Assembly (NCBI GenBank): GCA_022072255.1
Contig: JAJVHZ010000027.1
Location: 18,660-82,659, forward strand
Direction: 5' to 3'
DNA: 64,000 bases
Source: Gammaproteobacteria bacterium
Lineage (GTDB): Bacteria > Pseudomonadota > Gammaproteobacteria > JAJPIJ01
Shown here: positions 128 to 34,186 of the stretch, in pieces
Layout of the letters: the number at the start of each line of letters is the position of its first letter
Numbering within the stretch: the first letter of the stretch is position 1
Program-made: the position numbers and the translations under genes
Notes under the pieces: model-generated
Seen by the model: the letters and a program-made list of their open reading frames with translations, nothing else
Told to the model about the DNA's origin: nothing
Database searches by the model: none

Positions 128-541
128 ATGATCCAAACAAAGACGGTCTCAAAGATAGCCAGATGGATTTTGGGTGTCTTTCTCCTGGTGGGGATGTTCT
201 GTCCTTGCCGGTGGTTCCCTCCCCATTCCCAATCGCCACATGCCATTGAGCGATTCTGTTGCCCAACCTGCGAAGACGAACAGAGGAGTGATCAGGAGGA
301 CTCCGGAAGCATCCCGGAGACGTGTGAAAGTGGCTGTTGCAGTTCCTGCCTAACCCCGGAGAGGGGGGGCAATTGGAGCCTGGATCATGCCACAACCTTT
401 CTCTCGGTTATCTGTGTTGTGCCTCTCGTTGAGTCCCTCGTTGCATTTTGTAAGCTGGCCCCATATCCCCTCCTACCTCTTGCTTCTCCTCCAATATATA
501 AAGGTTGCCCCTTCCCCAACCTGGGTTCTCTCCTGATCTGA
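128..541 (+). CDS. Cys-rich leader/upstream ORF (paralog 1 of 7)
   Basis: N-terminal hydrophobic stretch ending CPC, then CCPTCE and CESGCCSSC, Pro-rich linker, C-terminal LGSLLI; same layout as 8270-8680. Confidence 0.65.
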   Translation: MIQTKTVSKIARWILGVFLLVGMFCPCRWFPPHSQSPHAIERFCCPTCEDEQRSDQEDSGSIPETCESGCCSSCLTPERGGNWSLDHATTFLSVICVVPLVESLVAFCKLAPYPLLPLASPPIYKGCPFPNLGSLLI

Positions 542-634
542 ATCCCGCTCGTTACTTCCTCTTCATCCACAAGATAGCAGTAGTTATGACGCTTACAGGT
601 TTACCGCAATGGAAACCTGAAATAGGAGGAACAA

Positions 635-2683
635 ATGAGCAGCAATTTCAAAATCGCATTTGGAGTATCATTAGTGCTCCTGGTAATCGGTACGGCAGTG
701 ATCTTCGGTGCCCGTGATGTCAACGGATGGAACCATTTCAGTGGATTTGTTGCGAAAGCATTTGACCAGTTGTATATCGAAGCACTTGCGTCTGATCAAC
801 CCTCCACGGAGGCAACTGGAGACAGTTCTGGTGATTCAGCAGATGGAAAACCGGAGGACACCGCGGATTGGGACGTTGAATTGAGTTCAACGGTTCCCAA
901 TGTGGCGTTGCCAGAATTCGATGCAGGAAAAGTCGCGGAGTTCAAAGCCAAGGGAGATTGGTGTACCTCTCATAATGTGCCGGAGTCAATGTGCATTATG
1001 TGCAATCCAGACTTGATTCCAAGATTCAAGGGAACCGGTGATTGGTGCGCTGGTCATGGGGTTCCAGAATCGCTTTGCACTTCATGCAACCGGAAGTTGG
1101 CTGATCTGGGCATTGGATTCACTACGCCTCAAACGTCAGGGACCCATGATTCGGGCAGCCCCGAAACCCTCACGAAGGAGAAGCTTCAGGAGTTCAGGGC
1201 CAAAGGTGATTGGTGTACGGAGCACAACATCCCAGAGTCTCTCTGTACAAAATGCAATCAACAATTAGCGGCTGAATACAAGGCAAAAGGCGATTGGTGT
1301 GCGGAACACAAAGTCCCCGATTCACTTTGTCCAGACTGCAAACCGGCGATTGCTGCTCTCGGTATCGGAAGAGATTGGTGCGAGAAACACAATCTACCCG
1401 AGTCCCAGTGTGTCTTCTGCCATCCTGAACTGGCCCTTTCGAAATCACAACTGGCAATTTATGCCAATGCCGGATTGGACCTTGGTTTGTCGGGTGAAGG
1501 AATCTTGAAAAGTCTGGAGATGAGCATATCTCAGCACCTCCCGATTGCAGTGGAACCTATGGACGAACCAGACCAACGATTGGGAATCAATCCAAACTGC
1601 CATCTCCACGGCACGCAGATTCTGTTTGCATCCCCTGAGGTCGCGGGAGAAGTAGGGATCGCCGTGGTAGATGCGAAAATGGATCTCGTCACGGAGTCGT
1701 TACCCTGCTACGGGGAGGTTCAATATAACAAGAGCAGGTTTGTCTTGCTCTCCTCGAGGGCACCGGGGATCGTTGAATCTGTTCAAGGAGACCTCGGTGA
1801 TTCCGTGAAAAAGGGCCAGGTTGTAGCCATCATCGACTCGGCCGAACTGGGTGAGGCCAAAGCTGCTTTGCTTCGCGCACACTCGGAACGCAACCGTTGG
1901 AGTTGGGTTACCGAGTCCTATGAGAGTTCCAACGGGAGCGGGGCGATTTCCCGGAAAGACCTGGTCGAAGCCAAGGCCGCCTTAGCGGGGGCAAGTATCG
2001 AGGTCGATATTGCCGCTCAGAAACTTAGGAACTATGGCCTCGATGGAGAGATGCTGGAACAGATCGTTGAAAATCACAACACTTCCACCCTCCTTCCCGT
2101 AATGGCCCCATTCGATTCAACCGTGGTAGAGTTGAAAGCGGTTCCGGGTGAAGTTATCGAACGAGGTGGTCCCATCTTTGCGTTGGCCGACACATCAACG
2201 ATGTGGGCGATGTTAGACATTTTTGTGAGGGACCTCCCGAAGGTCAAGGAGGAAATGCCTGTTGTCTTTTCTCCCGACGGATTGGATGGACAAGTCTTTC
2301 ACGGGAAAGTCGATTGGATCGGTTCGCAGCTGGATGAGAAGACCCGAACTGCGAAGGTGCGTGCGATTCTACATAACCACGATGGCCAAATCCGTTCGGG
2401 TCTTTTTGGCAAGGGTGAAATCGCGCTTCACCAAAACGATGGGGTTCTTACCGTTCCGCGCGAATCTGTCCAGTGGGATGGTTGCTGCAATGTTGTGTTT
2501 GTGAAGAAGTCCGACGTGCTTTATCAACCTCGGAAGATTCGAATCGGCTATGCAACAGACGATAATTATGTCGTCGAGGCTGGCCTTATCTCAGGAGAGA
2601 GAATTGTAACAACGGGAAGTTATCTTCTCAAGACTGAAATCCTTAAGGGAAGCATCGGCGCCGGATGCACCTGCGGAGGCTAG
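635..2683 (+). CDS. czcB: HME-RND periplasmic adaptor (CzcB-like) with five N-terminal WCxxHxxPESxCxxC repeats
   Basis: SD AGGAGG; N-terminal TM segment; adaptor core (SRAPGIVESVQGDLGDSVKKG, LDEKTRTAKVR); directly upstream of czcA-type gene. Confidence 0.85.
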   Translation: MSSNFKIAFGVSLVLLVIGTAVIFGARDVNGWNHFSGFVAKAFDQLYIEALASDQPSTEATGDSSGDSADGKPEDTADWDVELSSTVPNVALPEFDAGKVAEFKAKGDWCTSHNVPESMCIMCNPDLIPRFKGTGDWCAGHGVPESLCTSCNRKLADLGIGFTTPQTSGTHDSGSPETLTKEKLQEFRAKGDWCTEHNIPESLCTKCNQQLAAEYKAKGDWCAEHKVPDSLCPDCKPAIAALGIGRDWCEKHNLPESQCVFCHPELALSKSQLAIYANAGLDLGLSGEGILKSLEMSISQHLPIAVEPMDEPDQRLGINPNCHLHGTQILFASPEVAGEVGIAVVDAKMDLVTESLPCYGEVQYNKSRFVLLSSRAPGIVESVQGDLGDSVKKGQVVAIIDSAELGEAKAALLRAHSERNRWSWVTESYESSNGSGAISRKDLVEAKAALAGASIEVDIAAQKLRNYGLDGEMLEQIVENHNTSTLLPVMAPFDSTVVELKAVPGEVIERGGPIFALADTSTMWAMLDIFVRDLPKVKEEMPVVFSPDGLDGQVFHGKVDWIGSQLDEKTRTAKVRAILHNHDGQIRSGLFGKGEIALHQNDGVLTVPRESVQWDGCCNVVFVKKSDVLYQPRKIRIGYATDDNYVVEAGLISGERIVTTGSYLLKTEILKGSIGAGCTCGG

Positions 2684-2686
2684 ACG

Positions 2687-5764: not shown

Positions 5765-6495
5765 AAAAGGGATTTATTGGAAGAGATAATTGTTGATACT
5801 ACAATCAAACCTGAGTAAGTGGGAGTGCGCATCCGATCACATGATCTTTGCAAGGCGGAGGTTGATTAGCTGCTATTCCTTTAATTTCCAAAGAAAACAC
5901 CGAGTCCGTGTTCGTATATGTCATAAAAGACACTCCCGAGAAGATATGGAGGGACATCATGATCGTGAGGAATCTGAATACCTATATGAACATTATTCCT
6001 ACACCGCATGCGCTGTCCACAACTCAGGTTGATTCACATTCTCATACTGATGTCAAAAATAAACCATATCCGGCTAACGGTGATACGATTGATGGGATAA
6101 CATCTAGCGAGTTGAATGGAATGATTGTGAGTTTCTTTCTTGAGTAATGCGTCGTGTTTATTACACAATTATCCGGAGACTGAAATGCGCATACTTTTAC
6201 CGAAAATAAAGGAAGTAAAGGTCGGAGGTGTTTCTAGTCGTGAGAATCTTGAAGGTCGACATGAGGTATCAGTTGACGAGTGGATGATTACAGATACATT
6301 GTTACAGCAATAGAACCTTTTGGATGGAACCAACTATGAAGTGGAGAATAGATGTTTCCGTGAGATTGACTGAAGACGTTACCCCAAACGTGGCTGATCG
6401 TTTATTTCCAATAGTGCTCACCGTATGGAATGGTAAGAAGATCTGGAGGCACTACAGATCGGTCAGTGACTGATAAGATCTGTCCGCAGGACGAC

Positions 6496-6975
6496 ATGCT
6501 CATGATCTCTCGGAGGTTATCCCTTTTCCTTTGTTTGGTTCTCCTTACTGGTCCAACCCCTGATATCTGCTGCTGTTGCCACACTGTCGATACCGAGTCC
6601 CACAAAACTTCTCCCAAGGCTTGGTTCGCTCAAACCTACACTCACCGCGACGTCTCGGGTTGTATCTGCTGTCAGATTCCCTCATCTGAACGAATGGGAT
6701 GCTGCGATTCGGGGGATTGTGTTCCATTCGACCCAACTGGTTGTAATTGCTGTGTAAGAGGACAGAACCCTGACAATCAGGGGACTCCACCCCCCAAGGC
6801 GTTGGAGAAAGGAACGAGTTCGAATCGCTTGCTGTTTCTTACAGCGATCCACTCGAACTTCAGTCGCGCTTATCTGGCCCGTGGCACCACCTCACCGCTT
6901 TTCGAGCAATCCCCTGATCCCTCCGGGTTTGCATATCACCCCCTGTTCTTACTCAATTACTCCATCCTTTGCTGA
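6496..6975 (+). CDS. Cys-rich leader/upstream ORF (paralog 2)
   Basis: Hydrophobic N-terminus, CCCCH, CICC, GCCDSGDC, CNCC; ends PLFLLNYSILC; same length (480 nt) as homolog 22383-22862. Confidence 0.7.
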   Translation: MLMISRRLSLFLCLVLLTGPTPDICCCCHTVDTESHKTSPKAWFAQTYTHRDVSGCICCQIPSSERMGCCDSGDCVPFDPTGCNCCVRGQNPDNQGTPPPKALEKGTSSNRLLFLTAIHSNFSRAYLARGTTSPLFEQSPDPSGFAYHPLFLLNYSILC

Positions 6976-7192
6976 ACCTCCTTTAGTTGAGGCCGCTCGG
7001 AAAGTCTGTCTACGCCACGAAAAGAGCTGCGCTGGATGATGATTCGCATGGCCTCACACTAATCCCAGAAACCCATTCCAACAGGATCAAATGACGTGCC
7101 CTACCGAGGCGCCCGCTCTCACCTCCCTTGTAGGCCGAGGGGCTGGCTCTCGAGTCGGGTCCGAACAAAGAGGTAACAAAGGAGGTTTCACC

Positions 7193-7852
7193 ATGAACAG
7201 CATGAAAACCGGCATGGGCCCACTACTCATGCCTCACGACACTTCAACTGAAGAAGCAGAATGGCTTGCTGATGATCCGTCGTACCTTATCCAGTCGCTG
7301 GACGCGATGCCGATCGAGATGGCGGCGTCCTGGATGTTGACCTGGTACAGGAGTGGAGACATTTGGAGGGTGGCGCTCTCTTCCCATTACTTTGCACAGT
7401 GCCGCTATCAGTCTTGGATTGAGGGGATGATTGGGGAGATACGGAGCGGCATTGACTGGCGAGTCGGTTTCGTGGTGGACCAACTTGCGAACTATGGAGA
7501 ACCAGCGGTTGAGAAAATTCTGCCACTTTTTGGCGACACCAGTTTTCGCTCTGCAGCCGTCGAAATCATTGGGAGGATGGATCTCCATGTCTTGCCCAGA
7601 ATCATCCGAGAACTCAGCAGGACATCGTGGGGAACTCGGCTGAATCTCATTAGGTCATATACCCTCAGCCAACCAGAAGCAGCTTATGGGTTGATGGTTG
7701 ATCTCCTCTACAGCGAGAGTTCGCGGGTAAGCTGCCGGGGTTCTGTCAGGAAATCATCCTCTTTATCTCCCTCTACTTGCCATTCGGAAGCAGTCGGCAA
7801 AGGGTCAGTTCAGTTCCTTTACGACGTTCCTCTCGCAGGAGGATCCCAATGA
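7193..7852 (+). CDS. hypothetical helical protein, WYRSGD family (copy 1 of 3)
   Basis: SD AAAGGAGG; motif WYRSGDIWRVALSSHYF shared with 21508-22167 and 32588-33154. Confidence 0.75.
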   Translation: MNSMKTGMGPLLMPHDTSTEEAEWLADDPSYLIQSLDAMPIEMAASWMLTWYRSGDIWRVALSSHYFAQCRYQSWIEGMIGEIRSGIDWRVGFVVDQLANYGEPAVEKILPLFGDTSFRSAAVEIIGRMDLHVLPRIIRELSRTSWGTRLNLIRSYTLSQPEAAYGLMVDLLYSESSRVSCRGSVRKSSSLSPSTCHSEAVGKGSVQFLYDVPLAGGSQ

Positions 7853-8022
7853 AACAAGGGAATCACACAGCAAGGCTCCTGATTGTCATCTCACTGGGGG
7901 TATTCCTCGTTGGATGCACATCGGCAACCGGATTTCGAAGGGGATCGGTCTCACCTGCAGCATATGACCAGAATGTCTACGGACTGGGATACGACTTCAA
8001 GCATGCGCCTCAGCCATTCTGA
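7849..8022 (+). CDS. 57-aa putative lipoprotein (copy 1)
   Basis: ATGA overlap with upstream gene; lipobox-like LVGC; C-terminal YDFKHAPQPF identical in the second copy at 21338-21511. Confidence 0.65.
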   Translation: MKQGNHTARLLIVISLGVFLVGCTSATGFRRGSVSPAAYDQNVYGLGYDFKHAPQPF

Positions 8023-8101
8023 AAGAGGTATTGCAGTGAACCAGTGGTTGGTTAGCCCAGAACGCAGCCAACCGGGAAAGTAGAACCGAGGAGAAATCGC
8101 A

Positions 8102-8233
8102 ATGAAACGGTACAAAGCGGGTCGTTCGATTACTCTCAACTTGCTTGTTGTGACGTTGACCACAGTCGCTCTGACTCTTGTCCCCAGCCAAGCGTTCGCC
8201 GGTGCCTACGTCCAGATCGGGGACAGAGATTGA
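8102..8233 (+). pseudogene. 43-aa signal-peptide-only ORF, probable truncated copy of the SGNH hydrolase gene
   Basis: Manual translation MKRYKAGRSITLNLLVVTLTTVALTLVPSQAFAGAYVQIGDRD*; N-terminus matches MKRYKTRNSITLNLLIV of 19739-21259. Confidence 0.5.
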
Positions 8234-8258
8234 CCGTGATCGCAGAATAGGATAACGT
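8230..8258 (+). promoter_or_regulatory. sigma70-like promoter of czc operon 2
   Basis: TTGACC (8230-8235), 17 nt, TAACGT (8253-8258); ATG 8270 lies 11 nt downstream. Confidence 0.55.
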
Positions 8259-8269
8259 AACTTTTAGCA

Positions 8270-8680
8270 ATGCTATCACAATCGTTCGCACATCGGCTTG
8301 CACGGTGGTTCTTCCCACTCTTCGTGGGAGGGTTCTTCCTCTGTCCATGCCGTGGCTTTGTGGACCTTCTGAAGCCAGCTGAGGCGTCTTCTGTTTCCTG
8401 CTGTGAGAATTGTGAGCGTGAGAAACAGAATCATAGAGTCCCACCAGGAAACGGCCAAGACTGTAAGTGTGCGACTGGTTGCTGCAGTCACTATTTGGTT
8501 CCAGAAAGTGGAGATTACTCCCATCCGACTCCGCCTCCTCAAGAGGTGCCGCCTTTTCTCGGGTCTTCATCCGAAAGCCCTATTCTTGCTCTCTGTGTCG
8601 AAGGAGGGGTGCCTCTCAGGTTTCTCCCGCTTTTCCATAGAGGGAGCCTCTTACCCGCCTTGAATGCCCTTCTGATCTAG
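8270..8680 (+). CDS. Cys-rich leader/upstream ORF (paralog 3)
   Basis: Hydrophobic N-terminus ending CPC; CCENCE and CKCATGCC; ends LNALLI; paralog of 128-541. Confidence 0.68.
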   Translation: MLSQSFAHRLARWFFPLFVGGFFLCPCRGFVDLLKPAEASSVSCCENCEREKQNHRVPPGNGQDCKCATGCCSHYLVPESGDYSHPTPPPQEVPPFLGSSSESPILALCVEGGVPLRFLPLFHRGSLLPALNALLI

Positions 8681-8776
8681 TCCTTTCTCCTTAGGTCTCA
8701 ACGAGATTGAGTCACAAGAAGATTTGCGTGTCTCGCATCCAAGATGCGAAGCCAAGAATCGACAAGGAGAATAAAC

Positions 8777-10594
8777 ATGAGCCGAATGGGAATTAGTTTC
8801 ACCGGCCTTTTGCTGGTTATTACGATTATCGGGACACTGTCCCTTCTTGAGTATTCTGGGACGGTTGCATCAATTCTATCGGGTGCCGGGAAATCCACTA
8901 TCCCCACCGCAGTGGCAGAAGGAAGCCCCGTGGCTTCCGAGGATGACGACCGGGAGACGGATTCCGGCGATGGCTGGAGCATGGAGACGCCACCTGCCAA
9001 CGACGAGGGCGCAGCCTCTGCTGTGAAAGCGGCGGGAGACACTTGTTGTCCTCCGGGTGCCAAGAATCCTACCTGCGAGGTCGGCGGGCTTTTCGACCCA
9101 TCGAAGATCGAGCAATACAAAGCCTCCGGGGACTGGTGTACGCCTCACGGGGTTCCCGAATCGATGTGCGTCAAATGTAATCCCAATCTAGTCGTCCAAT
9201 TCAAGGAGAAAGGCAACTGGTGCGCCGGCCATGAGCTTCCCGAATCTCTGTGTCCACTCTGCCACAAGGAGTTAGCGGAGGCTGGGGTCGGTCGCGATTG
9301 GTGCTCCGCGCACGGCCTCCCCGCGTCGCAATGCATCATCTGTAAGAACCGTTCAAAACAATCCACGGGCGAGAACGGCTTGGTATCTTCACTTCAAAAC
9401 CAAGTCGCAGAAATGGCACTCGAGCTCGTCCCCTCAGGAGATGGCGGAACGGATTCGAAAATCAGCGCGGCGAGCGGGATCGGCCAGAGAGTATCGATCA
9501 ATCCGAACTGCCTCCTTCACTTGGCTAAAATCCGGCTGGCCTCTCCAGAAATTGCGGAGAGCGCGGGATTGCAGGTGGAGAGTGCGCAAGCCGCGGACCG
9601 GAATCGGACTGTTGATTGTTACGGCGAGGTTCAATTCGACAAGACCAAATACGCTCTGATCTCACCCCGTAGCGGTGGCATCGTGAGAACGGTGGAAGTC
9701 GATCTGGGCCGGGCGGTGAAACGGGGCGATGTTCTGGCGAATGTCGATTCGATCGAATTTGGCCGCGCCAAAGCAGATTACCTTCGGGCCTGGACCGAGT
9801 ACGAGCGTTGGACTTGGATGGACGAGTCTTTCGACCGCGCCATTAGTGTAGGTGGTATTGCCCTTAAGGAAAAAGTGGAAGCGAAATCTTCCCTTGACGC
9901 CGCCAGCGTGGAGATCGCCATCGCCGCTCAGGACCTTAGGAATTATGGACTCGAATCGGAAGATATCGAACGGATAAAACTGACCAATGACACCCGAACG
10001 GACCTTCCGGTGCGCGCTCCTTTCGATGGCACCGTGGTGGAGTTGAACGCTGTGGTCGGAGAAAGGGTCGTAGCAGGGGATCCACTTTGCTCGGTCGCCG
10101 ATTTGACCAGCGTGTGGGTAGTTGTCGATGTTTCCGCGAGCGATCTCCCGATGCTCGCCCTTGGGTCATCTCTGACGTTCCGGCCTGATAGTCTCATCGG
10201 TGAAACCTTTACGGGAACCGTGACTTGGATTTCGCCGAAACTCGACGAACGGACTCGGACGGCCAAAGCCCGGATGGAGATCCAAAATACGGACGGTCTC
10301 CTGCGTGCCGGTCAATTCGGACGCGGGTCTATTCAGGAAGAAGAGTTCCCGGATGCAATCGTGGTTCCCCGCGAGGCGGTTCAATGGGACGGCTGCTGTA
10401 ACGTCATTTTCGTGGAGGAATCTCAAGGTGTATACGAAACACGCAAACTGCGCGTCGGCTCCGAAACCGAAACGGAACGCGTGATCCTCACTGGATTGGT
10501 TCCCGGCGAGCGTGTAGTCACAACCGGGAGTTATCTCCTAAAGACTGAAATCTTGAAGGGGAGTATTGGCGCCGGTTGCTGTGGAAACGACTAA
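8777..10594 (+). CDS. czcB: HME-RND periplasmic adaptor (CzcB-like) with three Cys/His repeats
   Basis: SD AAGGAG before ATG 8777; paralog of 635-2683 (QWDGCCN, KTEILKGSIGAGC). Confidence 0.85.
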   Translation: MSRMGISFTGLLLVITIIGTLSLLEYSGTVASILSGAGKSTIPTAVAEGSPVASEDDDRETDSGDGWSMETPPANDEGAASAVKAAGDTCCPPGAKNPTCEVGGLFDPSKIEQYKASGDWCTPHGVPESMCVKCNPNLVVQFKEKGNWCAGHELPESLCPLCHKELAEAGVGRDWCSAHGLPASQCIICKNRSKQSTGENGLVSSLQNQVAEMALELVPSGDGGTDSKISAASGIGQRVSINPNCLLHLAKIRLASPEIAESAGLQVESAQAADRNRTVDCYGEVQFDKTKYALISPRSGGIVRTVEVDLGRAVKRGDVLANVDSIEFGRAKADYLRAWTEYERWTWMDESFDRAISVGGIALKEKVEAKSSLDAASVEIAIAAQDLRNYGLESEDIERIKLTNDTRTDLPVRAPFDGTVVELNAVVGERVVAGDPLCSVADLTSVWVVVDVSASDLPMLALGSSLTFRPDSLIGETFTGTVTWISPKLDERTRTAKARMEIQNTDGLLRAGQFGRGSIQEEEFPDAIVVPREAVQWDGCCNVIFVEESQGVYETRKLRVGSETETERVILTGLVPGERVVTTGSYLLKTEILKGSIGAGCCGND

Positions 10595-10597
10595 GTC

Positions 10598-13500
10598 ATG
10601 CTGAAGATTCTCGGGGCAATTCTTTCGTGGTCGCTTAGGAACCGGTTACTGGTTCTGGTCCTGACTGGTCTGCTAGTGGTTACAGGGGTTGTGTCCCTTC
10701 AGCGCTTGCCGATTGACGCTTTTCCCGACACCTCGCCGACACAGGTTCAAGTCAACACAGTCGCGCCGAACCTGTCGCCTGAAGAGATCGAACGGCAAGT
10801 TACGATCCCGGTCGAACTCTCCCTTTCCGGAATGCCGGGAATCGTCGCGATGCGGTCTCTAACCAAATTCGGATTTTCCCAGGTCATCATCATTTTCGAC
10901 GACCATACTGACGTTTACAGGGCCCGACAAGTGGTGGGCGAACGCTTGCAGACCGTCGATCTTCCTGAAGGGATCGGCCCACCGGAGATGGGTCCCATCG
11001 CGACCGGGTTGGGGGAGGTCTTCCACTATCTCCTGACATCCACAACCCGCGACCTAACAGAACTGCGAACCCTTCATGACTGGGTGGTTCGGCCCATTCT
11101 TTCTTCGGTTCCGGGAGTCGCGGAAGTCAACACTTGGGGCGGGCTTGTCAAACAATACCAAGTCGTTATCGATCCGCTGCGGCTAGCCAAGCATGGCCTT
11201 TCTTTGGAGGAGTTGGTCGACGCTCTCAGGAAGAACAACTCCAATGTGGGGGGTGGAAACCTCGTTATTTCAGGCGAACAAATCCTTGTGCATGGCATCG
11301 GCCTGGCGCAGAACGTCGAAGATATCGAATCCATCCCTGTCGCCACTTTCGATGGAACTCCCATTCATGTCGCCGACCTCGCCGAGGTCCGTGTAGGGCA
11401 TGAAATCCGCCGGGGAGCGGTTACGGCGCACGGGGGAGGCGAAGCCGTGCTCGGTCTGGCCTTCATGCTGGTCGGTGAAAACTCACGTGTCGTAACTCAA
11501 AACCTCGAACGAAAGATGGAGGATGTTCGTCGCGCTCTCCCCGAGGACGTGGAGATCGAAGTCGTTTACAACCGAATCTCACTGGTCGACGGCGTTCTGG
11601 AGACGGTTCGTACCAACCTGTTGGAAGGCGCCCTCCTAGTTGTTGCGGTTTTGTTTCTCCTGATGGGGAATTTCAGGGCTGGGCTGATTACCGCGCTGGC
11701 CATTCCTCTTTCGATGCTCTTCGCCTTCAGCGCGATGCTCCGCTACGGGATCGCGGGCAGTCTGATGAGTCTAGGCGCCATCGACTACGGCATGTTCGTG
11801 GACAGCTCCGTCATCATGATCGAGAACAGTGCCCGACGCGCCGCGGAGGACGACGGCAGACGCCCCTTCAAGGAAGTCATCCGCGAGGCTTGTATGGAGG
11901 TCCGCCGTCCGACCCTTTTTGGAGAGGCGATCGTGATGATCGTCTTTCTTCCGATCCTCACGTTAGAGGGGATCGAAGGGAAAATGTTCCGGCCCATGGC
12001 GCTGACTTTCCTATTCTGCCTTTTGGGTTCCTCGATCCTGTCTCTCACCCTCATGCCGACTTTGGCTAGTTTCTTTCTCAAGCGCGGCAGCCGCCCACGC
12101 CCCAATCGACTGATGTCTGGACTTCTTTGGATCTACCGCCCCTTCTTGTCGGTCGCTCTGAAGGTCCCACTGTTGGTTGTCCTTGCGGCCTTGCTCCTGA
12201 TCGGCTTCTCTGCGTGGGTGGCAAGCGACCTCGGATCAGAGTTCGTGCCCAAACTCTCTGAAGGCTCTATCGTCGTCAATACGGTCCGGTTGGCCGGAGT
12301 TTCGTTGGAGGAATCCGTCCGCTACGGAACCCAACTGGAGAAAGCCTTGCTCAAAGAATTCCCGGACGAAATTGACCGCCTCTGGACCCGGACCGGCGCG
12401 CCGGAAGTGGCTACCGATCCGATGGGGCTGGAAGTCTCGGATATCTTCATCCGACTCAAACCACGCGAAACCTGGTCGCGCGCGAAAACTCAGGAAGAGC
12501 TAGTCGAACGGATGAGCGTAACCCTTGCGGCATTTCCGGGAATGCGGGCCGTTTTCACTCAGCCGATCGAAATGCGGATGGCAGAGATGGTGGCGGGTTC
12601 CCGGGCAAATCTGGCGGTCCGAGTCTTGGGCGATGACCTTAAGGAGTTGGAGCGGGTGGGGACGGAGGTGGACGCTCTGCTGCGTACGGTCGAAGGAAGC
12701 GCCGATGTCCGCAGAGACCAGCTCACGGGGCAGCCGATCCTTCGAGCGAAACTTAAAAAAACCGCATTGGCCCGACACGGTATCGCGGGGAGTGAAGTCC
12801 TCGACCTAATCGAGGCTATCGGGGGTCTTAAGGTGGGCGAAATCCGTGAAGGCGAACGCCGTTTCGATCTAGCGATACGTCTTGACGACCGTTACCGCGG
12901 CGAGCCGGAAGCCTTAAAAAAGGTCTTGGTCCCCGCTCCCAATGGCACGACCCTCCCTCTCGAGGCCTTGGTCGATCTCACTTTCGAGGAAGGACCGCAG
13001 ACGATCCGCCGCGAATGGGGAAAACGCCAGATCACCATCGAATGCAACGTGCGCGGTCGCGACATCGGGTCCTTCGTGGAAGAAGCGCAACAAAAGATTT
13101 TGGATGGAGTGTCAATTCCTGATGGGTATCTCGTCGAGTTCGGCGGACAGTTCGAGCACCTGATAGCGGCACGGCGCCGGCTGATGTTCGTCGTACCGCT
13201 GTCTCTCGGCCTCATCCTCGTGTTGCTGTATCTGACTTACCAAAGCGTGCGCGACGCCATCCTGATCTTTACGCAAGTGCCATTTGCGGTGGTGGGAGGC
13301 GTATTTGCACTTTATTTCTCCGGACTCCCCTTTACAATTTCGGCGGCGGTGGGATTCGTTGCGCTATCCGGCATTGCCATACAGAACGGTTTGGTCGTCA
13401 TCTCGTATGCCCGCAGCCTGATGCGCCGTGGTTCAGCCCTTCGAGAGGCAATCCAGGAAAGTGCCCTGGTACGCCTCCGTCCAGTCTTGGCGACGGCGCT

Positions 13501-13693
13501 CACAGACGTGTTGGGTTTCATTCCAATGGCCCTCTCGACTGGCTTAGGTGCAGAGGTCCAACGTCCGTTGGCAACCGTCATCATCGGAGGGGCTGTTTCA
13601 TCCACGCTGCTGACGCTCCTTGTCTTGCCAGCGGTCTATTCCATTTTCGGAAAGCAGTTGGACCCGTCGGATGGAGAAGAAGATTCCGGTTGA
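10598..13693 (+). CDS. czcA: HME-RND permease, CzcA-type (second copy)
   Basis: 1031 aa; IDAFPDTSPTQVQVNT, GAIDYGMFVDSSVIMIEN, EVQRPLATVIIGG. Confidence 0.92.
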   Translation: MLKILGAILSWSLRNRLLVLVLTGLLVVTGVVSLQRLPIDAFPDTSPTQVQVNTVAPNLSPEEIERQVTIPVELSLSGMPGIVAMRSLTKFGFSQVIIIFDDHTDVYRARQVVGERLQTVDLPEGIGPPEMGPIATGLGEVFHYLLTSTTRDLTELRTLHDWVVRPILSSVPGVAEVNTWGGLVKQYQVVIDPLRLAKHGLSLEELVDALRKNNSNVGGGNLVISGEQILVHGIGLAQNVEDIESIPVATFDGTPIHVADLAEVRVGHEIRRGAVTAHGGGEAVLGLAFMLVGENSRVVTQNLERKMEDVRRALPEDVEIEVVYNRISLVDGVLETVRTNLLEGALLVVAVLFLLMGNFRAGLITALAIPLSMLFAFSAMLRYGIAGSLMSLGAIDYGMFVDSSVIMIENSARRAAEDDGRRPFKEVIREACMEVRRPTLFGEAIVMIVFLPILTLEGIEGKMFRPMALTFLFCLLGSSILSLTLMPTLASFFLKRGSRPRPNRLMSGLLWIYRPFLSVALKVPLLVVLAALLLIGFSAWVASDLGSEFVPKLSEGSIVVNTVRLAGVSLEESVRYGTQLEKALLKEFPDEIDRLWTRTGAPEVATDPMGLEVSDIFIRLKPRETWSRAKTQEELVERMSVTLAAFPGMRAVFTQPIEMRMAEMVAGSRANLAVRVLGDDLKELERVGTEVDALLRTVEGSADVRRDQLTGQPILRAKLKKTALARHGIAGSEVLDLIEAIGGLKVGEIREGERRFDLAIRLDDRYRGEPEALKKVLVPAPNGTTLPLEALVDLTFEEGPQTIRREWGKRQITIECNVRGRDIGSFVEEAQQKILDGVSIPDGYLVEFGGQFEHLIAARRRLMFVVPLSLGLILVLLYLTYQSVRDAILIFTQVPFAVVGGVFALYFSGLPFTISAAVGFVALSGIAIQNGLVVISYARSLMRRGSALREAIQESALVRLRPVLATALTDVLGFIPMALSTGLGAEVQRPLATVIIGGAVSSTLLTLLVLPAVYSIFGKQLDPSDGEEDSG

Positions 13694-16928: not shown

Positions 16929-16940
16929 GGTTGGAGGTGG

Positions 16941-18768: not shown

Positions 18769-18959
18769 CTAACCACCCCCTTTACGCAGGCGGTAAAGGA
18801 TCTGTCGTAGTTCGTTCATGTGGATAGGCTCCATGTCTCCCCCAAAGTCATCAGAGTTGGAGGGATGGTAGATCCCGATTCCCCCGGGTCAAACCGGCCG
18901 ATCCCAGGTGGGTCAATCCGGTCGACTATAGGTGGGTCAATTTAGGGCGGTGATTGAGA
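18769..18959 (-). mobile_element. IS21-family remnant: terminal repeat array plus 21-codon istA-like start
   Basis: Minus strand begins TCTCAATCACCGCCCTAAATTGACCCACC; three TTGACCC repeats at 23-24 bp period (18887, 18910, 18934); then SD and MEPIHMNELRQILYRLRKGGG* (18834-18769). Confidence 0.65.
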
Positions 18960-19742
18960 GCAAGCACACAGAGATCATCCACGACCTCATCTACTACCAC
19001 TCGAGGATCAATCGCCTGCTTGGTGACCGTCCACTTACCAGAATCACCACAAGTCAGCGTCAGTAGGTTCTCGACCAACCGTACAAGGCAGGCCACTTCC
19101 TCCAACATGCTCCCGATGACATCCCGGTAGGCGATGGAATCGAGGTTGTCGCGCAGGGCGACTTCGCCAACGCTCCGTATCGCTGTAAGGGGCGTACGTA
19201 GCTCATGGGAAGCATCGGAGGTAAACCGGCGCTGCCGTTCGAAGGCATCCTCCAATCGGGATAGTGCTTCGTTGAAACTGGTAGCCAGGAGTCCCAGTTC
19301 ATCACCCGGGTTTCCAACGGGCAGCCGTTGGCATAGTGACTCAGCGGTGATCTTTCTGGCCCGCTCCGCCATAACGCCCACAGGCGCAAGCAGGCGGCCC
19401 GTCAGGAAGTGGCCACCCGCCCAACCCGCCGAACAATACATTGACCCCAAGCATGGTGAATTGGTTTGCGTTCTCCATGGGGTCGTCCGGCCAGGAAACC
19501 CGGATGTCGACAAAGTAAAGAACGGAAATCCCAAGGGCTGCAGCCACGTTTCCCCTGATCCCAAACCAAAGTACCGAGCCCAGAATGATGAGCAGACAAA
19601 GCGTTCGAAGGAAGATGTGGACGAGATGCTGCTGATGATTCTCGGTTCCTGTCGCGAAGTGGAGCCCTGTCACCACCAAGCCGCCTCCGACCAAGAGGAT
19701 TGCCTGTAACATGCGATTTGAAGCTGTCGCTGTGGTCATCAA
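18960..19742 (-). pseudogene. disrupted membrane sensor histidine kinase (TM region, frameshift, HAMP-HisKA; no ATPase domain)
   Basis: HAMP (DELGLLATSFN) and H-box (FTSDASHELRTPL) lie in a different frame from the TM N-terminus (shift near 19410); reading runs into the IS end after DDLCVLA. Confidence 0.8.
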
Positions 19743-21259: not shown

Positions 21260-21337
21260 GGTGATGTCTCCTCGGTTCAGCTTCCCCGGCTGGGGCTGTC
21301 CTGGACGAATCCGCTTTTGATTCATCGATTCCCTCTT

Positions 21338-22167: not shown

Positions 22168-22382
22168 GGAATAACCTCCTTTGTTTTTCCCTGCTCCAAA
22201 CCGAGTCGGAACACCTTTCGTTCAACCGGCAGATGGCTTGGGAGCTGGCGTCTCCGCGTGGAGGCCTAATGCTCTTGCCAATATGGATTTCGACGATTGG
22301 TGCGAGCCCGTGCGATAAGTTATCTGACGCCACCTAGATTGCGGCAGAGACAGACTTCTCGAGCGGTTTCAACTGAGGAGGT

Positions 22383-22862
22383 TCAGCGAAGAATGGAGTG
22401 GTTGACTAAGAACCGTGGCGAATATGGAAAGATGAAACTACCCGAGGACTCATCGAACAGAGATGGGGTGGTACCCCTGGCCAGGAAATCCCCACAAAAC
22501 GTTGAGTAACCTGCCATCAAGGACTGCAGACGATTCGAAATCGTTTCGTTCTCTGACGCCTTTGGGGGTAGAGTGCCGTGATTGATTGGATTCTGTTCTC
22601 TTAGGCTGCAATTGCAGGCATTTGGCCCGAATGAAACACATGACCCCGAATCACAGCAGCCCATGCGTTCAGAGGAGGGCATCTGACAGCAGGTACGACC
22701 CGAGTGTTCGCAGCGAGAGCAGGTTGGAGCGCGCAAGGAATCGGGAGACTTATTGTGGGACTCGGCATCGGCCGTGGGGCAACAGCAGCAAATCGCGGGG
22801 ATCGGGCCGAGAAGCAGGACCAGACAAAGAAAGGAGACCACTATCCGATTCATCATTGGCAT
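22383..22862 (-). CDS. Cys-rich leader/upstream ORF (paralog 4)
   Basis: ICCCCP, CSRCE, CCQMPSSERMGCCDSGSC; ends FLVNHSILR; homolog of 6496-6975. Confidence 0.7.
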   Translation of the reverse strand: MPMMNRIVVSFLCLVLLLGPIPAICCCCPTADAESHNKSPDSLRAPTCSRCEHSGRTCCQMPSSERMGCCDSGSCVSFGPNACNCSLREQNPINHGTLPPKASENETISNRLQSLMAGYSTFCGDFLARGTTPSLFDESSGSFIFPYSPRFLVNHSILR

Positions 22863-25523: not shown

Positions 25524-25766
25524 CAGAGATTAACTCCTCTTCTGGGTATCTGTTGCATGGATGAAATCCGAACTCCCGTCAAAGAAGCCATGCTTGCATG
25601 ACGGGGCTCTCGGATACGATGAGGGGACCTGGGATTGTGAGGACACCCGTCCGGCGGTTTCACCACGGACAGACGGCCAGACAGTCTACCAGCATCGAAT
25701 CGGTCACGTGGGATCGCAATTCGGATCCAGCTGGACAGGCCTCTCCCCTCATCGTAGCGGGGGGGG

Positions 25767-26219
25767 TCAACATCGGAAGGAGTGGTTTGAGAGATATGGC
25801 GGCGGAACAAGGAAACAGACCAGTTCCTGAGAAAAGTCTCCACGAGCTGTGTCATCCGAGGGGGATCCGACGGTCCGTCTCCAACGGCCTGATGGGATTA
25901 TCCCGCTCGGATGCTCAGGAAGCCTTTCCGAACCGGGGCGCGGTACTGCCGGTGGGGGTGTGGGACGTTCATTACAGCGGCAGTGGCCATAGGCACAGCC
26001 GCACTGTGATGGGTCACACCGGCTGCAGCAGTCACAACAGCCCTTGGATTTCCGGCAGCCCTCTCGAGGACCTTGGGCGTCTTCCACGCAGCAGGTGGAA
26101 CAGGCTGGTAACTTACATTCCGGTAAAGTGGAGTCACCTCCGCAACAGCTATAGCCCCACTGGGGACCAAGCCCTGTGACCACCAGAACGGAAAAGAGAA
26201 TCAGATACCTCTTCATCAT
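25767..26219 (-). CDS. Cys-rich leader/upstream ORF (paralog 5)
   Basis: Signal-like N-terminus; SCCGG, CSTCC, CCDCCSRC, CGC, CRC; ends PYLSNHSFRC; promoter TTGACG-17-TAACGT at 26260-26232. Confidence 0.68.
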   Translation of the reverse strand: MMKRYLILFSVLVVTGLGPQWGYSCCGGDSTLPECKLPACSTCCVEDAQGPREGCRKSKGCCDCCSRCDPSQCGCAYGHCRCNERPTPPPAVPRPGSERLPEHPSGIIPSGRWRRTVGSPSDDTARGDFSQELVCFLVPPPYLSNHSFRC

Positions 26220-26365
26220 AGTCCCTATTCAACGTTACCCATTGAGTGATGAGACGTCAACCATCGCGCCAGTACCGACAAGTGGAACCATACCTGTGGA
26301 GGAGAGTGAAGAGAAAAGATGGGCATTCCACCCGCCCTCGATGCCCTTCAGCCAACGGGTGCAAC

Positions 26366-26623
26366 TTAGCCATGACGGCCTCCTGAGCGCGGGCCAACAT
26401 TCCGATGCACGGTTTGCCCTTGGGAACCGCGATATCGGGACCCGTACCATGGGGAAGGATGGCTTCCATACATCGCCGAGAGACCGTAGCCTCCTCCCCC
26501 GTAGCCCCAACCACCACACGCTTGGGTGCTAGGAATCGGGTAAAGGGGGGTACCCATGGAGAGGGCCATCAACACCAGTAGGATTGGCCACCTTCTGAGA
26601 CTTCTGGACTTGTTTCCTATCAT
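26366..26623 (-). CDS. small exported Gly/Tyr-rich protein
   Basis: SD AAGGAG; signal peptide then CGGWGYGGGGYG; directly after cusA. Confidence 0.5.
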   Translation of the reverse strand: MIGNKSRSLRRWPILLVLMALSMGTPLYPIPSTQACGGWGYGGGGYGLSAMYGSHPSPWYGSRYRGSQGQTVHRNVGPRSGGRHG

Positions 26624-26703
26624 TGCTTTGTTCTCCTTTCTGCCAAATAAGGCCTTGCAGCGCAAGGCCAATGTGAGCATCTTTCAATATGATCCGAAAT
26701 CCT

Positions 26704-29973: not shown

Positions 29974-29985
29974 GGCTACGCGCTC

Positions 29986-31548: not shown

Positions 31549-31613
31549 GCTTCTCCTCTGCTTTCCTTTTCGCATTGGTCCCGGTGGAACAAAGAGCTTT
31601 ACTGGGATATACC

Positions 31614-31862
31614 CTAATGCGACATATGGGAACCAGCCGAATATGAAGATCCCCCGGATTTGACGGAGCTCCCCATCGGTTTAAGATCCATCTTACATAT
31701 CGGGCACTGTCCAGGAGACTCGGATTTCTCCTCCGGGTGCATTGGGCAGGTGTACATTCCTCTCGACCTGGCCATCTCAGCACATCCCCCAACTAGAAGG
31801 ACAACCCCGATTAGAAGCAGTGCAGTGGCAATAACCTGCCTCCTCTTCATTCCTTCAAACAT
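31614..31862 (-). CDS. small lipoprotein with heavy-metal-binding domain
   Basis: Lipobox-like VGGC; [16 protein letters not shown]; ends HMSH. Confidence 0.75.
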   Translation of the reverse strand: MFEGMKRRQVIATALLLIGVVLLVGGCAEMARSRGMYTCPMHPEEKSESPGQCPICKMDLKPMGSSVKSGGSSYSAGSHMSH

Positions 31863-32134
31863 GGCGCAATTCCTCGATTCTTTAACCATTTAGATCCATC
31901 ACACTTGCCTCTGAAAAATCCTGACAAAGCGGCAGACTGTGTTGGATGGTGATCTCGCAGCCTCCTCACTCTTGTCCAACCGCGGAAGGATGAACGAACT
32001 CAGAGATGGGATACCGGGTTACTTACGTTTTGGCTCAAAGATGGAGAAGTCTGTGATCCCGAGTAAACCTCAGGCATTAGAACTCGTCTTGCCTGGTGTT
32101 CAGTGGACAGACCTATCGCGTCGATTGGAGTGAT

Positions 32135-32524
32135 TCAACACCTGAATGAACTATCGAGTAGATACAAGGGAGTGCTGCCAGAGCACGGCAGTAGCCATTC
32201 CACCTCTGAGGGTGAATAGGCCTGAGAGGATACTTCCACAACTGTGCCAAGGCCGGTTGGAATGATTGCCCCGAGCACGTTGTCATCAGCTCTTTCAGCT
32301 GGCCGCGGGGCTGGTACGGTTGGTTGAGGGGATTCCGCCTCGGTACAGCCGCACATGCACGGCCCACTATCAGACCCATCGCAGCAACCGCAGCCACACA
32401 TCCCCTTGTTATCATCGTTGGGACTGGGATCTGTGCCAGCCAAGTATTGAGCACAGGAGCACTCTGCCAACGGAAAGGCAAGCACCAGCGAAAAAATAAG
32501 GATCAGGCTCGCATAGCGTCTCAT
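32135..32524 (-). CDS. Cys-rich leader/upstream ORF (paralog 6)
   Basis: Signal-like N-terminus ending CSC; CGCGCCDG, CMCGC; ends PLYLLDSSFRC; promoter TTGACA-17-TAGCTT at 32567-32539. Confidence 0.68.
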   Translation of the reverse strand: MRRYASLILIFSLVLAFPLAECSCAQYLAGTDPSPNDDNKGMCGCGCCDGSDSGPCMCGCTEAESPQPTVPAPRPAERADDNVLGAIIPTGLGTVVEVSSQAYSPSEVEWLLPCSGSTPLYLLDSSFRC

Positions 32525-32587
32525 GATTCTCTAAGGAAAAGCTACAAACACATTCCTTCCATGTCAATAAGAACGTTTGTGGTTCTC

Positions 32588-33154
32588 CTAACGCAACGTT
32601 GGGACCTCATCACGGTCCCGTCGCTGCATCAGGCTTGAGATCAAGCCGATTCGCATATCCATGGACTGATTCCGGACACAACCGACTAAAACAGGCACCA
32701 CATGCTTGTCCATCTTGGCCAGGATGTCGATGGTCGACCACAGCAGGTCTGGGTCCGAAAGCAGGCAGATGATCTTCCTCACGACGGGTTCACCAATCCG
32801 AATCAGCGTATCTATCGCTTTCTCAACGATGTCTCGTTCGGCACTCCGGAGTTGACTGATCAGGTCATCGATGAGGTGAGGGAAATCGGAATGGACAAAG
32901 AAGTGAGCTGCTATGGCGACTCGCCACAGGTCACCGCTTCTATACCAGGCCATCATCTCCTCCGCAGCATGTTCCAGAGGCAGTTTCAACAGAACATCCA
33001 GTAGGTCCGTCGGATCTTCGCTTAGAGTGCCATATCCAAGGCCTCCTCCCAGTGTCGGATTCCCTTTCCACAATTGCGTCACAGGTCTTCGTCTTTCGAG
33101 CCTAACAAACGGCACATGTTTTTTTTCGACAACTGTATTATTGGTTCTTAACAT
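32588..33154 (-). CDS. hypothetical helical protein, WYRSGD family (copy 3, divergent)
   Basis: SD AAGGAG; WYRSGDLWRVAIAAHFF, IGEPVVRKII, MDKHVVP. Confidence 0.7.
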   Translation of the reverse strand: MLRTNNTVVEKKHVPFVRLERRRPVTQLWKGNPTLGGGLGYGTLSEDPTDLLDVLLKLPLEHAAEEMMAWYRSGDLWRVAIAAHFFVHSDFPHLIDDLISQLRSAERDIVEKAIDTLIRIGEPVVRKIICLLSDPDLLWSTIDILAKMDKHVVPVLVGCVRNQSMDMRIGLISSLMQRRDRDEVPTLR

Positions 33155-33246
33155 TTGAGACTCTCCTTTGTCTGCAGTCTTACAAGCCCCGCATCCCATG
33201 GATGGGGCGTATTCTAGGTTTCTCAGTTCACGTCTTCATGGATTCC

Positions 33247-33915
33247 TCAGAGCCAAAAATGCTGCTGGCTATCAATCCCGGGCCACACCAAGATCGTCTC
33301 CGGTGGATTCAATGCGTGAAACGGTGGCATCTGTCGTGGCATTGAAAACGTTATCGTTTCTCCTTCTTGATTGGCCTTGAGCCTACGAAGCGCTAAGTCA
33401 GGATCTCTCAGGAAGGAGTTGATGCAATTCTCACAATGGAAGTGGAAGATCACACCATTGTACTCAATCCTTACCTTAGAGAATGCCTGCCTCATTGGCG
33501 CCACCGGACAGAAATTGTTCTGAAGGTCAATGGGTGTCTCAGGCCAGCCTGTCCGCTGATTCATTCGGTAGGCTTTCATATAAGTCCCAGAAAGATTCAT
33601 GGCTGCTTCGTCTTTGCAGGCTTCACAGCAGAGGTAGAGCCGTCCTGCAAGGTTTCGTTCCTTATCCTGATAATCAAGGTAGATCTCCGGATCGATGGGC
33701 TGTTTCGTGACAGGACACAAGCGATTCCCATTGACAGGTGGGGTCTTTCCAGTCTGGAGACCAGGTGTTCCAGAATCAATTTGACGATGGTCACTCATGC
33801 CACCCTCAGGATTGATTCGTTTGTCCTTCGAGAGCTCCGCTTGTGAATATAACGTCGCGATCAAGACTCCGAGTGATAGCGCTAACGTGCTAACCGTTTG
33901 AGCGATAGTTTTCAT
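33247..33915 (-). CDS. exported Cys-rich double YHS-like protein (copy 3)
   Basis: SD AAAGGAG; GNRLCPVT..YLCCEAC..QNNFCPV..EYNGVIFHFHCENC. Confidence 0.68.
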   Translation of the reverse strand: MKTIAQTVSTLALSLGVLIATLYSQAELSKDKRINPEGGMSDHRQIDSGTPGLQTGKTPPVNGNRLCPVTKQPIDPEIYLDYQDKERNLAGRLYLCCEACKDEAAMNLSGTYMKAYRMNQRTGWPETPIDLQNNFCPVAPMRQAFSKVRIEYNGVIFHFHCENCINSFLRDPDLALRRLKANQEGETITFSMPRQMPPFHALNPPETILVWPGIDSQQHFWL

Positions 33916-34186
33916 GTTGAATTGTCTCCTTTCTCTTCTCCCGTCTCTCCTCACAGGACATACATACGGTGAGGTCCAACGACTTTTACTTGTCGGCTTC
34001 CCGACCCTTCCTGTCTGAATCTCGCGCTGCGCTAGACATGCTCAGACCGGTGGATGGATCAGGGCGTTACCTTACTGGACTCTGTGTGTCGTGGTGGTGC
34101 GAAAAGATTGTTGACCGAATGGAAAATCCTCAGCTGACGTAGATGCTAAAGAAGGATTCCTCTCGGATCAGGTGGAGTGGAAAGGG

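Follow-up and report, generated by a model that had tools for sequence, protein, structure and literature searches.

The stretch of DNA analysed here, 64,000 nucleotides long and called the window below, carries a metal-resistance island of planctomycete type, with three adaptor plus RND pump pairs, two outer-membrane factors, a P1B-ATPase, and YHS and HMBD proteins. Set among these genes are seven paralogous cysteine-rich open reading frames (ORFs) of 129–160 amino acids (aa), L1 to L7, each with a metal-homeostasis gene 3′ of it on the same strand, after a spacer of 93–272 nucleotides (nt). An initial annotation had called them “leaders”; the name is apt in that each precedes a metal gene, but these are proteins and not short peptides. 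Around or just after the stop codon of L1–L4 and L7, the RNA is complementary to the next gene's Shine–Dalgarno sequence (SD). It is this complementarity, and the possibility that it masks a ribosome-binding site (RBS) until a ribosome reaches the leader stop, that we describe. All coordinates are window positions, and all calls are computational, drawn from sequence, folding predictions and database comparisons. The leaders are:

128–541 (+): L1, 137 aa, ends ..GSLLI-stop; paralogue of L3 (tblastn E = 2e-11)
6496–6975 (+): L2, 159 aa from ATG 6496, ORF open from 6430; ends ..PLFLLNYSILC-stop
8270–8680 (+): L3, 136 aa, ends ..NALLI-stop
22383–22862 (−): L4, paralogue of L2 with 57% aa identity; ends ..RFLVNHSILR-stop
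25767–26219 (−): L5, 150 aa, ends ..PPPYLSNHSFRC-stop, then C8 and a GGGGAGAGG box
32135–32524 (−): L6, 129 aa, ends ..LYLLDSSFRC-stop
34187–34660 (−): L7, 157 aa, ends ..RYITNHSIQC-stop

L1 and L3 lead into a CusB/HlyD-type (HlyD_D23) adaptor gene followed by an RND pump gene, L5 and L7 into a gene for a YHS protein, L6 into one for an HMBD protein, and L2 and L4, inside the island, into a gene for a HEAT-like protein of 219 aa. The initial annotation had the leaders “switching efflux on”, which fits L1 and L3 directly; the genes after L2 and L4 (HEAT-like) and L7 (YHS), however, do not encode efflux pumps.

All seven leaders have a signal-like N-terminus, read by eye as a K/R-containing start followed by 12–16 hydrophobic residues, and 10–18 cysteines, with invariant CC and C-x-C columns. 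Two types of C-terminus occur, ..LLI-stop in L1 and L3 and P-x-[YF]-L-x-x-x-[ST]-[IF]-x-C-stop in the other five, and this block is gap-free and the most conserved part of a family that is otherwise 30% identical. Apart from L5 (PPPYLSNHSFRC), only P0007, a close relative of it, and L007 have a PP motif within the last 15 residues; L1 has PP at −17/−16, and the remaining leaders have a single proline or none. The ratio of nonsynonymous to synonymous divergence (dN/dS) is 0.18–0.43 between paralogues and orthologues, i.e., the leaders are under purifying selection, and they are protein-coding. L3 is skipped by gene callers on the near-identical metagenome contigs L017–L022, L024 and L025, where an 82-aa antisense ORF is called in its place; only on L023 is it called.

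The family is tiny, with 11 representative clusters among 1.84 billion proteins. The five leaders of the original observation match no Pfam family at E ≤ 0.01; among ten A1 members searched at E ≤ 10, a single unrelated YgaP-like_TM match appeared in one; and six further family matches together with two plasmid homologues gave nothing at E ≤ 1 besides a marginal DUF6769 match to P0032. P0032 is a His/Cys-rich, signal-bearing protein of 127 aa that ends in RIQRPPRA, a CutF-like PP type, and is a weak match of the family profile (E = 2e-5), in the part that holds the signal and the cysteines. To judge from its sequence it is a possible remote bridge to the PP-type leaders, which Pfam did not confirm.

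The five complementarities quoted in the initial annotation are all where it had placed them. In L2, AACCTCCTTT (6975–6984) pairs with AAAGGAGGTT (7178–7187) over 10 bp; in L3, TTCTCCTT (8685–8692) pairs with AAGGAGAA (8764–8771) over 8 bp; and in L4, on the minus strand, AACCTCCT (22383–22376) pairs with AGGAGGTT (22180–22173), also over 8 bp. In L7, again on the minus strand, CCTTTC (34185–34180) pairs with GAAAGG (33933–33928). The L1 6-mer, TTCCTC (556–561) with GAGGAA (626–631), is present but had been under-described: the real helix is of 7 + 8 bp and covers both the SD and the AUG, made up of GCUCGUU (547–553) with AAUGAGC (634–640) plus UUCCUCUU (556–563) with AGGAGGAA (624–631). The arms are:

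547–563 (+): L1 5′ arm GCUCGUUacUUCCUCUU, includes TTCCTC 556–561; present in the minimum free energy (MFE) and centroid structures, duplex −20.2 kcal/mol
624–640 (+): L1 3′ arm AGGAGGAAcaAAUGAGC, the SD and start codon (ATG 635) of the CusB/HlyD-type adaptor gene 635–2683
6975–6984 (+): L2 anti-SD AACCUCCUUU, begins on the final base of the stop codon
7178–7187 (+): SD AAAGGAGGUU of the 219-aa HEAT-like gene (ATG 7193, to 7852)
8685–8692 (+): L3 anti-SD UUCUCCUU
8764–8771 (+): SD AAGGAGAA of the adaptor gene 8777–10594 (then RND pump 10598–13693)
22376–22383 (−): L4 anti-SD AACCUCCU, identical in the orthologue L001
22173–22180 (−): SD AGGAGGUU of the 219-aa HEAT-like paralogue (GTG 22167, to 21508)
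34181–34191 (−): L7 arm GUUGACCCUUU, straddles the stop codon and includes CCTTTC
33921–33933 (−): L7 partner GAAAGGAGACAAU, the SD region of the YHS-domain gene (ATG 33915, to 33247)

Two other roles for the tract were rejected by eye. Selenocysteine insertion or read-through at the terminal UGA does not fit, as the L2 frame closes four codons after the stop and an indel shifts the frame between L2 and L4; nor does an antisense gene whose SD would be the complement of the tract: in L2 such an ORF would have two codons, and it has no conserved counterpart in L4.

Does the pairing exceed chance? As a measure we took how probable it is to find a perfect complement of at least the same length in a random 22-nt window piece, which comes to 0.0008 for L2, 0.004 for L4 and 0.006 for L3, and 0.06 and 0.07 for the 6-mers alone of L1 and L7. 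The full L1 helix, with its duplex energy of −20.2 kcal/mol, reaches p = 0.003 when set against 3000 random pieces of the window. Because the L2 and L4 cassettes are paralogous duplicates whose spacers can be aligned, their pairing counts as one event and not two. In L2, L3 and L4 the stop-adjacent window is the top partner of the RBS over the entire spacer, and it beats dinucleotide shuffles at p = 0.024, 0.038 and 0.000, respectively. Combined by Fisher's method over independent loci, p is ~3e-4 for the perfect-match measure and ~0.005 for a broader duplex measure. The signal is real, and is carried by L1, L2/L4 and L3; it exceeds chance for only about four of the seven leaders, with the L7 6-mer alone at chance level. 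Against shuffled controls, then, the pairings of L2, L3 and L4 are rarer than expected and that of L1 stands out from the background, but L7 does not and the family as a whole is borderline. The sequence facts first reported are thus correct, and the observation over-generalised.

The complementarity could be a by-product of pyrimidine-rich leader ends and first 25 post-stop nt (C 0.24–0.48, G 0.08–0.32) facing purine-rich SDs, with the leaders being ordinary exported metal-binding or regulatory proteins, like CzcI, that are translated independently of the genes 3′ of them. The values for the L1 and L7 6-mers taken alone and the borderline family-wide significance are what such an origin predicts, and so is the finding that other CU tracts, in the ORF end or the spacer, pair equally well or better in L3, L5, L6, L7, L007 and L027. 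It had been claimed that the anti-SD changes along with each SD; a cross matrix of the window leaders gives this no support, with non-cognate pairs as good as cognate ones (the L3 tract pairs over 9 nt with the L7 SD and over 8 with its own, and the L2 tract over 7 nt with the L7 SD). These cross-pairings point to generic CU-rich tracts meeting generic AG-rich SDs. Composition alone, however, does not readily explain why the perfect 10-, 8- and 8-bp matches, the 15-bp L1 helix and a 9-bp match on a plasmid (see below) all begin no more than 6 nt from the stop, why the tract is the single best RBS partner over 270–380 windows in L2, L4, L028 and the L6 orthologue of locus L008, or why L1, L3 and L4 beat composition-preserving shuffles. 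The L2 and L4 spacers, moreover, have diverged except in two conserved islands, one after the stop and one at the SD. We consider a compositional by-product unlikely, though with appreciable weight.

Folding with ViennaRNA, of the spacer alone or with 30 nt of the ORF, places the helices in the MFE and centroid structures, with a probability of 0.9–1.0 that the SD is paired with the tract in L1, L3, L4 and L7. For L2 the spacer alone folds with the reported 10-bp helix; with 30 nt of the ORF, the SD pairs instead with an in-ORF UCCUUUG just 5′ of the stop, and ACCUC with an upstream GAGGU. The spacers fold with z-scores of −3.3 (L1), −2.2 (L3), −1.7 (L2), −1.8 (L4) and −2.4 (L7). A modelled ribosome footprint on the stop, from 16 nt before to 10 nt after it, lowers the energy for opening the RBS by 2–9 kcal/mol in L1–L4 and L7, and for L1, L3 and L4 this effect exceeds that obtained when the 25 post-stop nt are shuffled. 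When only the 12 covered nt are shuffled, the same three reach the best attainable p (1/31). The proposal that a ribosome at the leader end covers the anti-SD and frees the downstream RBS is predicted to hold for L1–L4, and weakly for L7; the prediction is nevertheless context-dependent, and two of the seven leaders and several orthologues have no such pairing.

How would the leaders themselves be translated? No SD lies upstream of any of the seven candidate ATGs. For L1, L3, L5, L6 and L7, σ70-like boxes of the form TTGACN-16..18-TAxxxT end 8–14 nt before the ATG:

90–119 (+): TTGACA-18-TACCAT, ends 8 nt before the L1 ATG
8230–8258 (+): TTGACC-17-TAACGT, ends 11 nt before the L3 ATG
26260–26232 (−): σ70-like box before L5
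32567–32539 (−): σ70-like box before L6
34697–34670 (−): TTGACT-16-TATCAT, directly before L7

Together these suggest that the leaders are near-leaderless first cistrons. Simple scans reported no promoter-like site inside the leader spacers, and RNA-derived (metatranscriptome) contigs span the leader–gene junctions; they show presence, without transcript ends or depth, and thus fall short of proof that leader and downstream gene are co-transcribed, as we presume.

The mechanism that we propose runs as follows. The leader would be the first cistron of a metal-homeostasis transcription unit and encode an exported Cys-rich protein. In L1–L4, and weakly in L7, the pyrimidine tract that starts 0–6 nt past its stop would form the 5′ arm of a long-range helix, with the next gene's SD, and in L1 also the AUG, as the 3′ arm; the helix would close the spacer into one domain and mask the RBS. 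A ribosome with a stop codon in its A site holds ~10–13 nt of mRNA, with the helicase acting at ~+11. The arms begin within that footprint, and a ribosome that reaches the stop, especially one that dwells there, would occupy or unwind the 5′ arm and free the downstream RBS, making downstream translation depend on translation and termination of the leader. The dwell time would probably depend, by analogy with the CutF protein discussed below, on metal that the exported Cys-rich chain binds while nascent, with the effect exerted via the conserved C-terminal block.

These parts do not stand equally firm. What the analysis shows is the complementarity, where it lies, its dominance in the predicted folds and the protein-coding nature of the leaders; co-transcription, masking in the cell, the role of the ribosome and any stalling that depends on metal are inferred. 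For masking of the RBS by the helix in vivo in L1–L4, the balance tips slightly in favour. That downstream translation requires leader translation is close to an even call, just on the doubtful side. Metal-tuned stalling, argued from analogy, we think rather improbable as matters stand. The best-supported form of the idea is translational coupling at least; should the C-terminal block be an arrest motif, metal would also tune how long the ribosome dwells at the stop. RBS masking of the CutF/SecM type, opened by the ribosome translating the leader, is our best reading of the locus as a whole, held tentatively and a little short of even.

Several results weigh against it. No SD complement adjoins the stop of L5 or the window copy of L6, as the initial annotation had itself said, and the same is true of the L6 orthologue in L006, of L027 and of L030. 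Among the L6 orthologues the tract (UUCCUC / GAGGAA) is found in one of three, L008, a loss or gain that also suits a compositional origin. The little specificity in cross-pairing among the leaders has been described above. Across 13 independent family loci, shuffles of the 12 covered nt combine by Fisher's method to p ~0.06, which is borderline. With 120 nt of naked upstream ORF included in the fold, the footprint effect is >3 kcal/mol only for L2 and L3; in L1, L4 and L7 other CU-rich tracts step in and it drops to <1 kcal/mol, and a positional scan of the footprint in that context does not single out the stop as uniquely effective. The RBS opening energies of the genes after the leaders are not outliers against a rough set of window genes, a control whose start sites are noisy. 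Metatranscriptome coverage is low and even, and DNA carry-over is possible. Finally, compensatory change within one helix was not seen in any homologous locus, the pairs being invariant or differing by one G-U change.

The comparative record is thin. Word-indexed searches for homologues yielded few relatives or near-identical ones only, a single locus came from each of the genome and metagenome scans made with the HEAT-like protein, and tblastn of the leaders against plasmids gave self matches only. More than 20 extra contigs of the island are >99.7% identical and of no use for covariation. With so few divergent relatives, covariation analysis is under-powered, and the check for it proposed at the outset, in homologous loci, yielded no compensatory change. 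What can be compared shows the stop-flanking region to be a recurrent but not universal partner of the RBS. The L4 orthologue L001 has the helix unchanged, and an RNAalifold consensus of L2, L4 and L001 keeps it; L006, the L7 orthologue, retains the stop-straddling helix with one A-U to G-U change, and the helix is in the L7/L006 consensus. The best RBS partner is located at the stop in the L6 orthologue of L008 and in L032, an L5 orthologue in which CGGGU after the stop pairs with GCCCG just 5′ of the SD. L007 and L029 have 6-bp complements, and in L031 just 4 bp of stop-proximal pairing with the SD is found in the MFE structure.

Two homologues come from plasmids of cultured Planctomycetota, one per leader subfamily, L027 (NZ_CP011274.1, 3890–4261) ending in ..LMLQNFRC-stop and L028 (CP036351.1, 3726–4139) in ..ASLLL-stop; both are annotated as hypothetical proteins directly 5′ of czcB. 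The best plasmid matches of the RND pumps of the island are likewise two Planctomycetota plasmids, at 53–56% identity. On the Planctomyces SH-PL62 plasmid the czcB start would be masked by the last 30 nt of the leader ORF and not by a post-stop tract. The homologue on plasmid pK2D_1 of Planctomycetes K2D, distant, of L1/L3 type and ending in ..ASLLL-stop, has an independent, non-canonical 9-bp complement, CCUGCUGGC / GCCAGCAGG, which begins 3 nt past the stop and overlaps the czcB SD; with a duplex energy of −23.3 kcal/mol it is the top site in the ORF end plus spacer.

Orthologous spacers are 66–76% identical at a leader synonymous divergence (dS) of ~1, and so are under some constraint. A different possibility is that the tract is mainly part of a local hairpin or other conserved spacer element (GGAGAGG plus RAGGTCTGTCY) serving mRNA processing, stability, or protein or small-RNA binding, or that it forms segment 1 of a four-segment switch like that of ermC, with the SD masked by a second CU tract. 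Besides the spacer identity itself, stable hairpins lie directly after the stop in the L7 orthologue of L006 and in L028, L031 and L032 (z = −2.0 to −2.9), a conserved box is found 20–26 nt past the stop in L2, L4, L5, L6 and their orthologues, and the post-stop tract of L029 and L030 pairs locally, with the SD taken up by a second CU tract. But L1–L4, which have the strong SD complements, are without a stable local hairpin (z = −0.4 to +1.5), the mean z over 18 loci is just −0.47, and an Rfam scan of the whole window at the gathering threshold found no family. A family-wide local hairpin after the stop was accordingly rejected, as only a subset of loci has one, and we regard a chiefly local role for the tract as very improbable. 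The RAGGTCTGTCY box, kept between paralogues whose spacers are otherwise unalignable and preceded in the L5 and L6 types by the purine run GGAGAGG, is found at the following positions and also in L016, L006, L008 and L032:

7001–7011 (+): RAGGTCTGTCY box
22358–22348 (−): RAGGTCTGTCY box
25743–25733 (−): RAGGTCTGTCY box
32115–32105 (−): RAGGTCTGTCY box

The spacers also bear on attenuation of the TnaC/CruR type, in which the C-rich, G-poor leader end would be a Rho loading site, hidden by a ribosome on the stop to allow read-through of a long spacer, and the SD complementarity would be incidental. At 215–272 nt, the spacers of L2 and L4–L7 are similar in length to that of tna. The CruR spacer has 162 nt (PMC9973294), and CruR is itself a precedent for a metal-sensing upstream ORF that acts via Rho (PMC9426467). 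Composition agrees, with C 0.29–0.40 and G 0.13–0.26 over the last 90 nt of the ORFs, C-rich first 25 nt after the stop, and a second zone of C>G at about +78 to +95; the L5–YHS spacer, alone among the seven, has a terminator-like hairpin (GTCATGCAAGCATGGC plus TTCTTTG at 25602–25587, minus strand). The L1 and L3 spacers, on the other hand, are just 93–96 nt long, the spacers are C/G-balanced overall and predicted to be strongly structured, which disfavours Rho loading, and an exact SD complement is not needed for Rho. Termination by Rho therefore seems to us quite improbable as the main explanation.

RBS masking opened by a translating ribosome, our preferred reading, has its closest parallel in CutF of Rhodobacter capsulatus (cutFOG). 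This leader is exported, has a CxxxC motif and, at its C-terminus, a stalling motif, and is followed by a stem-loop in the spacer; mutating the anti-SD (CTTC) of the stem-loop abolishes the need for CutF (PMC9973294). CutF-like proteins occur 5′ of OEP, ACR_tran and HlyD_D23 genes (PMC9973294), and CutF-like/DUF2946-type proteins are treated in a second source (bioRxiv 10.1101/2025.02.05.636593). The leaders share with CutF a small first-cistron ORF, a signal-like N-terminus, a Cys motif, same-strand metal genes 3′ and a conserved C-terminal motif; masking of the next SD by a spacer anti-SD, opened by a ribosome at the leader end, is proven for CutF and predicted for some of the leaders. Of the features used to recognise CutF-like proteins, they have the metal-homeostasis gene 3′ on the same strand within 1000 nt (here 93–272 nt) and a putative metal-binding Cys motif (10–18 Cys, CC / C-x-C); at 129–160 aa they straddle the length limit of <150 aa; anti-SD shielding in the spacer is predicted for L1–L4 and L7, depending on context, and absent in L5 and L6; and the profile similarity is lacking, as is the PP motif in all leaders but L5. 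No leader or relative matched DUF2946 in Pfam up to E = 10, nor any other meaningful family. Further differences are that here the proteins end in P-x-[YF]-L-x-x-x-[ST]-[IF]-x-C-stop or ..LL[IL]-stop, where the C-terminal motif of CutF is proline-rich, that the helices here are long-range, with 64–250 nt between the arms, whereas CutF has a compact stem-loop and a spacer mostly <100 nt, and that the lineage here is of Planctomycetota type, unmentioned in PMC9973294, with seven paralogues in one island.

CruR (Bp2923) of Bordetella pertussis is likewise an upstream ORF with a Cys motif that heads a metal operon, with a conserved C-terminal arrest motif and its 162-nt spacer (PMC9426467), but it works by Rho-dependent termination, has a RAPP motif, and has its arrest relieved by copper, whereas the leaders have no RAPP and the prediction for them is SD masking. 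CzcI of Cupriavidus metallidurans, a small protein 5′ of czcCBA without a C-terminal proline motif and a suspected metal-sensing regulator, is the positional analogue of L1 and L3 (PMC9973294); no sequence similarity to the leaders was detected, however, and its mechanism gives no mechanistic test. SecM, VemP and MifM are exported proteins of 95–170 aa whose C-terminal arrest exposes the next SD (summarised in PMC9973294 and PMC10987492), but they control Sec/YidC components and sense export activity. The arrest motifs FxxxxWIxxxxGIRAGP and RAPP/RAPG are absent from all seven leaders and the genes 3′ are metal-related, so that the secM-type membership suggested by the initial annotation does not hold. 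Nor does its ermC-like control, since there is no short leader peptide: in ermC, too, a ribosome on the leader changes RNA pairing and frees a masked SD, but the leader has ~19 codons, an internal drug-dependent stall and four nested segments, against 129–160 aa and a single direct helix in L1–L4. Only L029 and L030 have an ermC-like 1:2 / 3:4 layout. Coupling through a long-range helix that masks an RBS is known from rpmI-rplT and from RNA phages, and the modelled pairing here is of that kind, with the downstream RBS predicted to pair with the end of the upstream cistron.

Elsewhere in the window, an inverted duplicated cassette (6430–8022 on the plus strand and 23009–21340 on the minus strand) comprises the leader, the 219-aa HEAT-like protein and an overlapping 57-aa lipoprotein-like ORF, with an ATGA overlap between the latter two at 7849–7852. 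The HEAT-like proteins of the L2 and L4 cassettes have a WYRSGD[MIL]W motif and are 53% identical, their leaders 57%; a third HEAT-like paralogue lies at 32588–33199 (−). An ORF of 212 aa at 18926–19564 (−) has HAMP and HisKA only, without an ATPase domain, where the orthologous locus L001 has a HAMP-HisKA-HATPase_c protein of 275 aa, and from this domain content may be a truncated sensor kinase. From 38000 on, the window is the backbone of a mobile element:

38000–64000: mobile-element backbone, with several large ORFs without a Pfam match
44149–47166: FtsK/SpoIIIE-like ATPase
50212–52956: Ser/Thr kinase with zinc ribbons and TPR, adjoining a WD40-like protein
60109–61299 (−): ArdC-N protein
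62352–63509 (−): Replic_Relax protein

The principle of such control has already been demonstrated in CutF, and the interpretation offered here is partly supported. What is new is a lineage-restricted leader family with a non-proline C-terminal block, of which a single mobile island has seven copies. Should the helices act in the predicted way, the CutF paradigm would extend to a lineage and a protein family that profiles do not link to DUF2946, with a different C-terminal motif and with long-range instead of local RBS masking. In its fullest form, which we consider speculative and unlikely, this would be a very rare, Planctomycetota-restricted family of exported Cys-rich nascent-chain metal sensors, whose non-proline C-terminal block arrests the ribosome on the stop upon periplasmic metal and opens an anti-SD/SD helix of up to 250 nt, seven differently wired copies each gating a different efflux or chaperone module on one mobile island; were that true, it would be a new class of arrest peptide and a modular, purely translational form of metal sensing. 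The seven leaders and the two plasmid homologues, at present un-named hypothetical proteins or missed by gene callers, merit annotation as candidate regulatory upstream ORFs. Copies of the island from wastewater, sludge and bioreactor metagenomes are >99.7% identical in every copy compared, and with the mobile backbone this means that the regulation bears on the expression of metal resistance after horizontal transfer; such control would need no dedicated transcription factor beside each operon.

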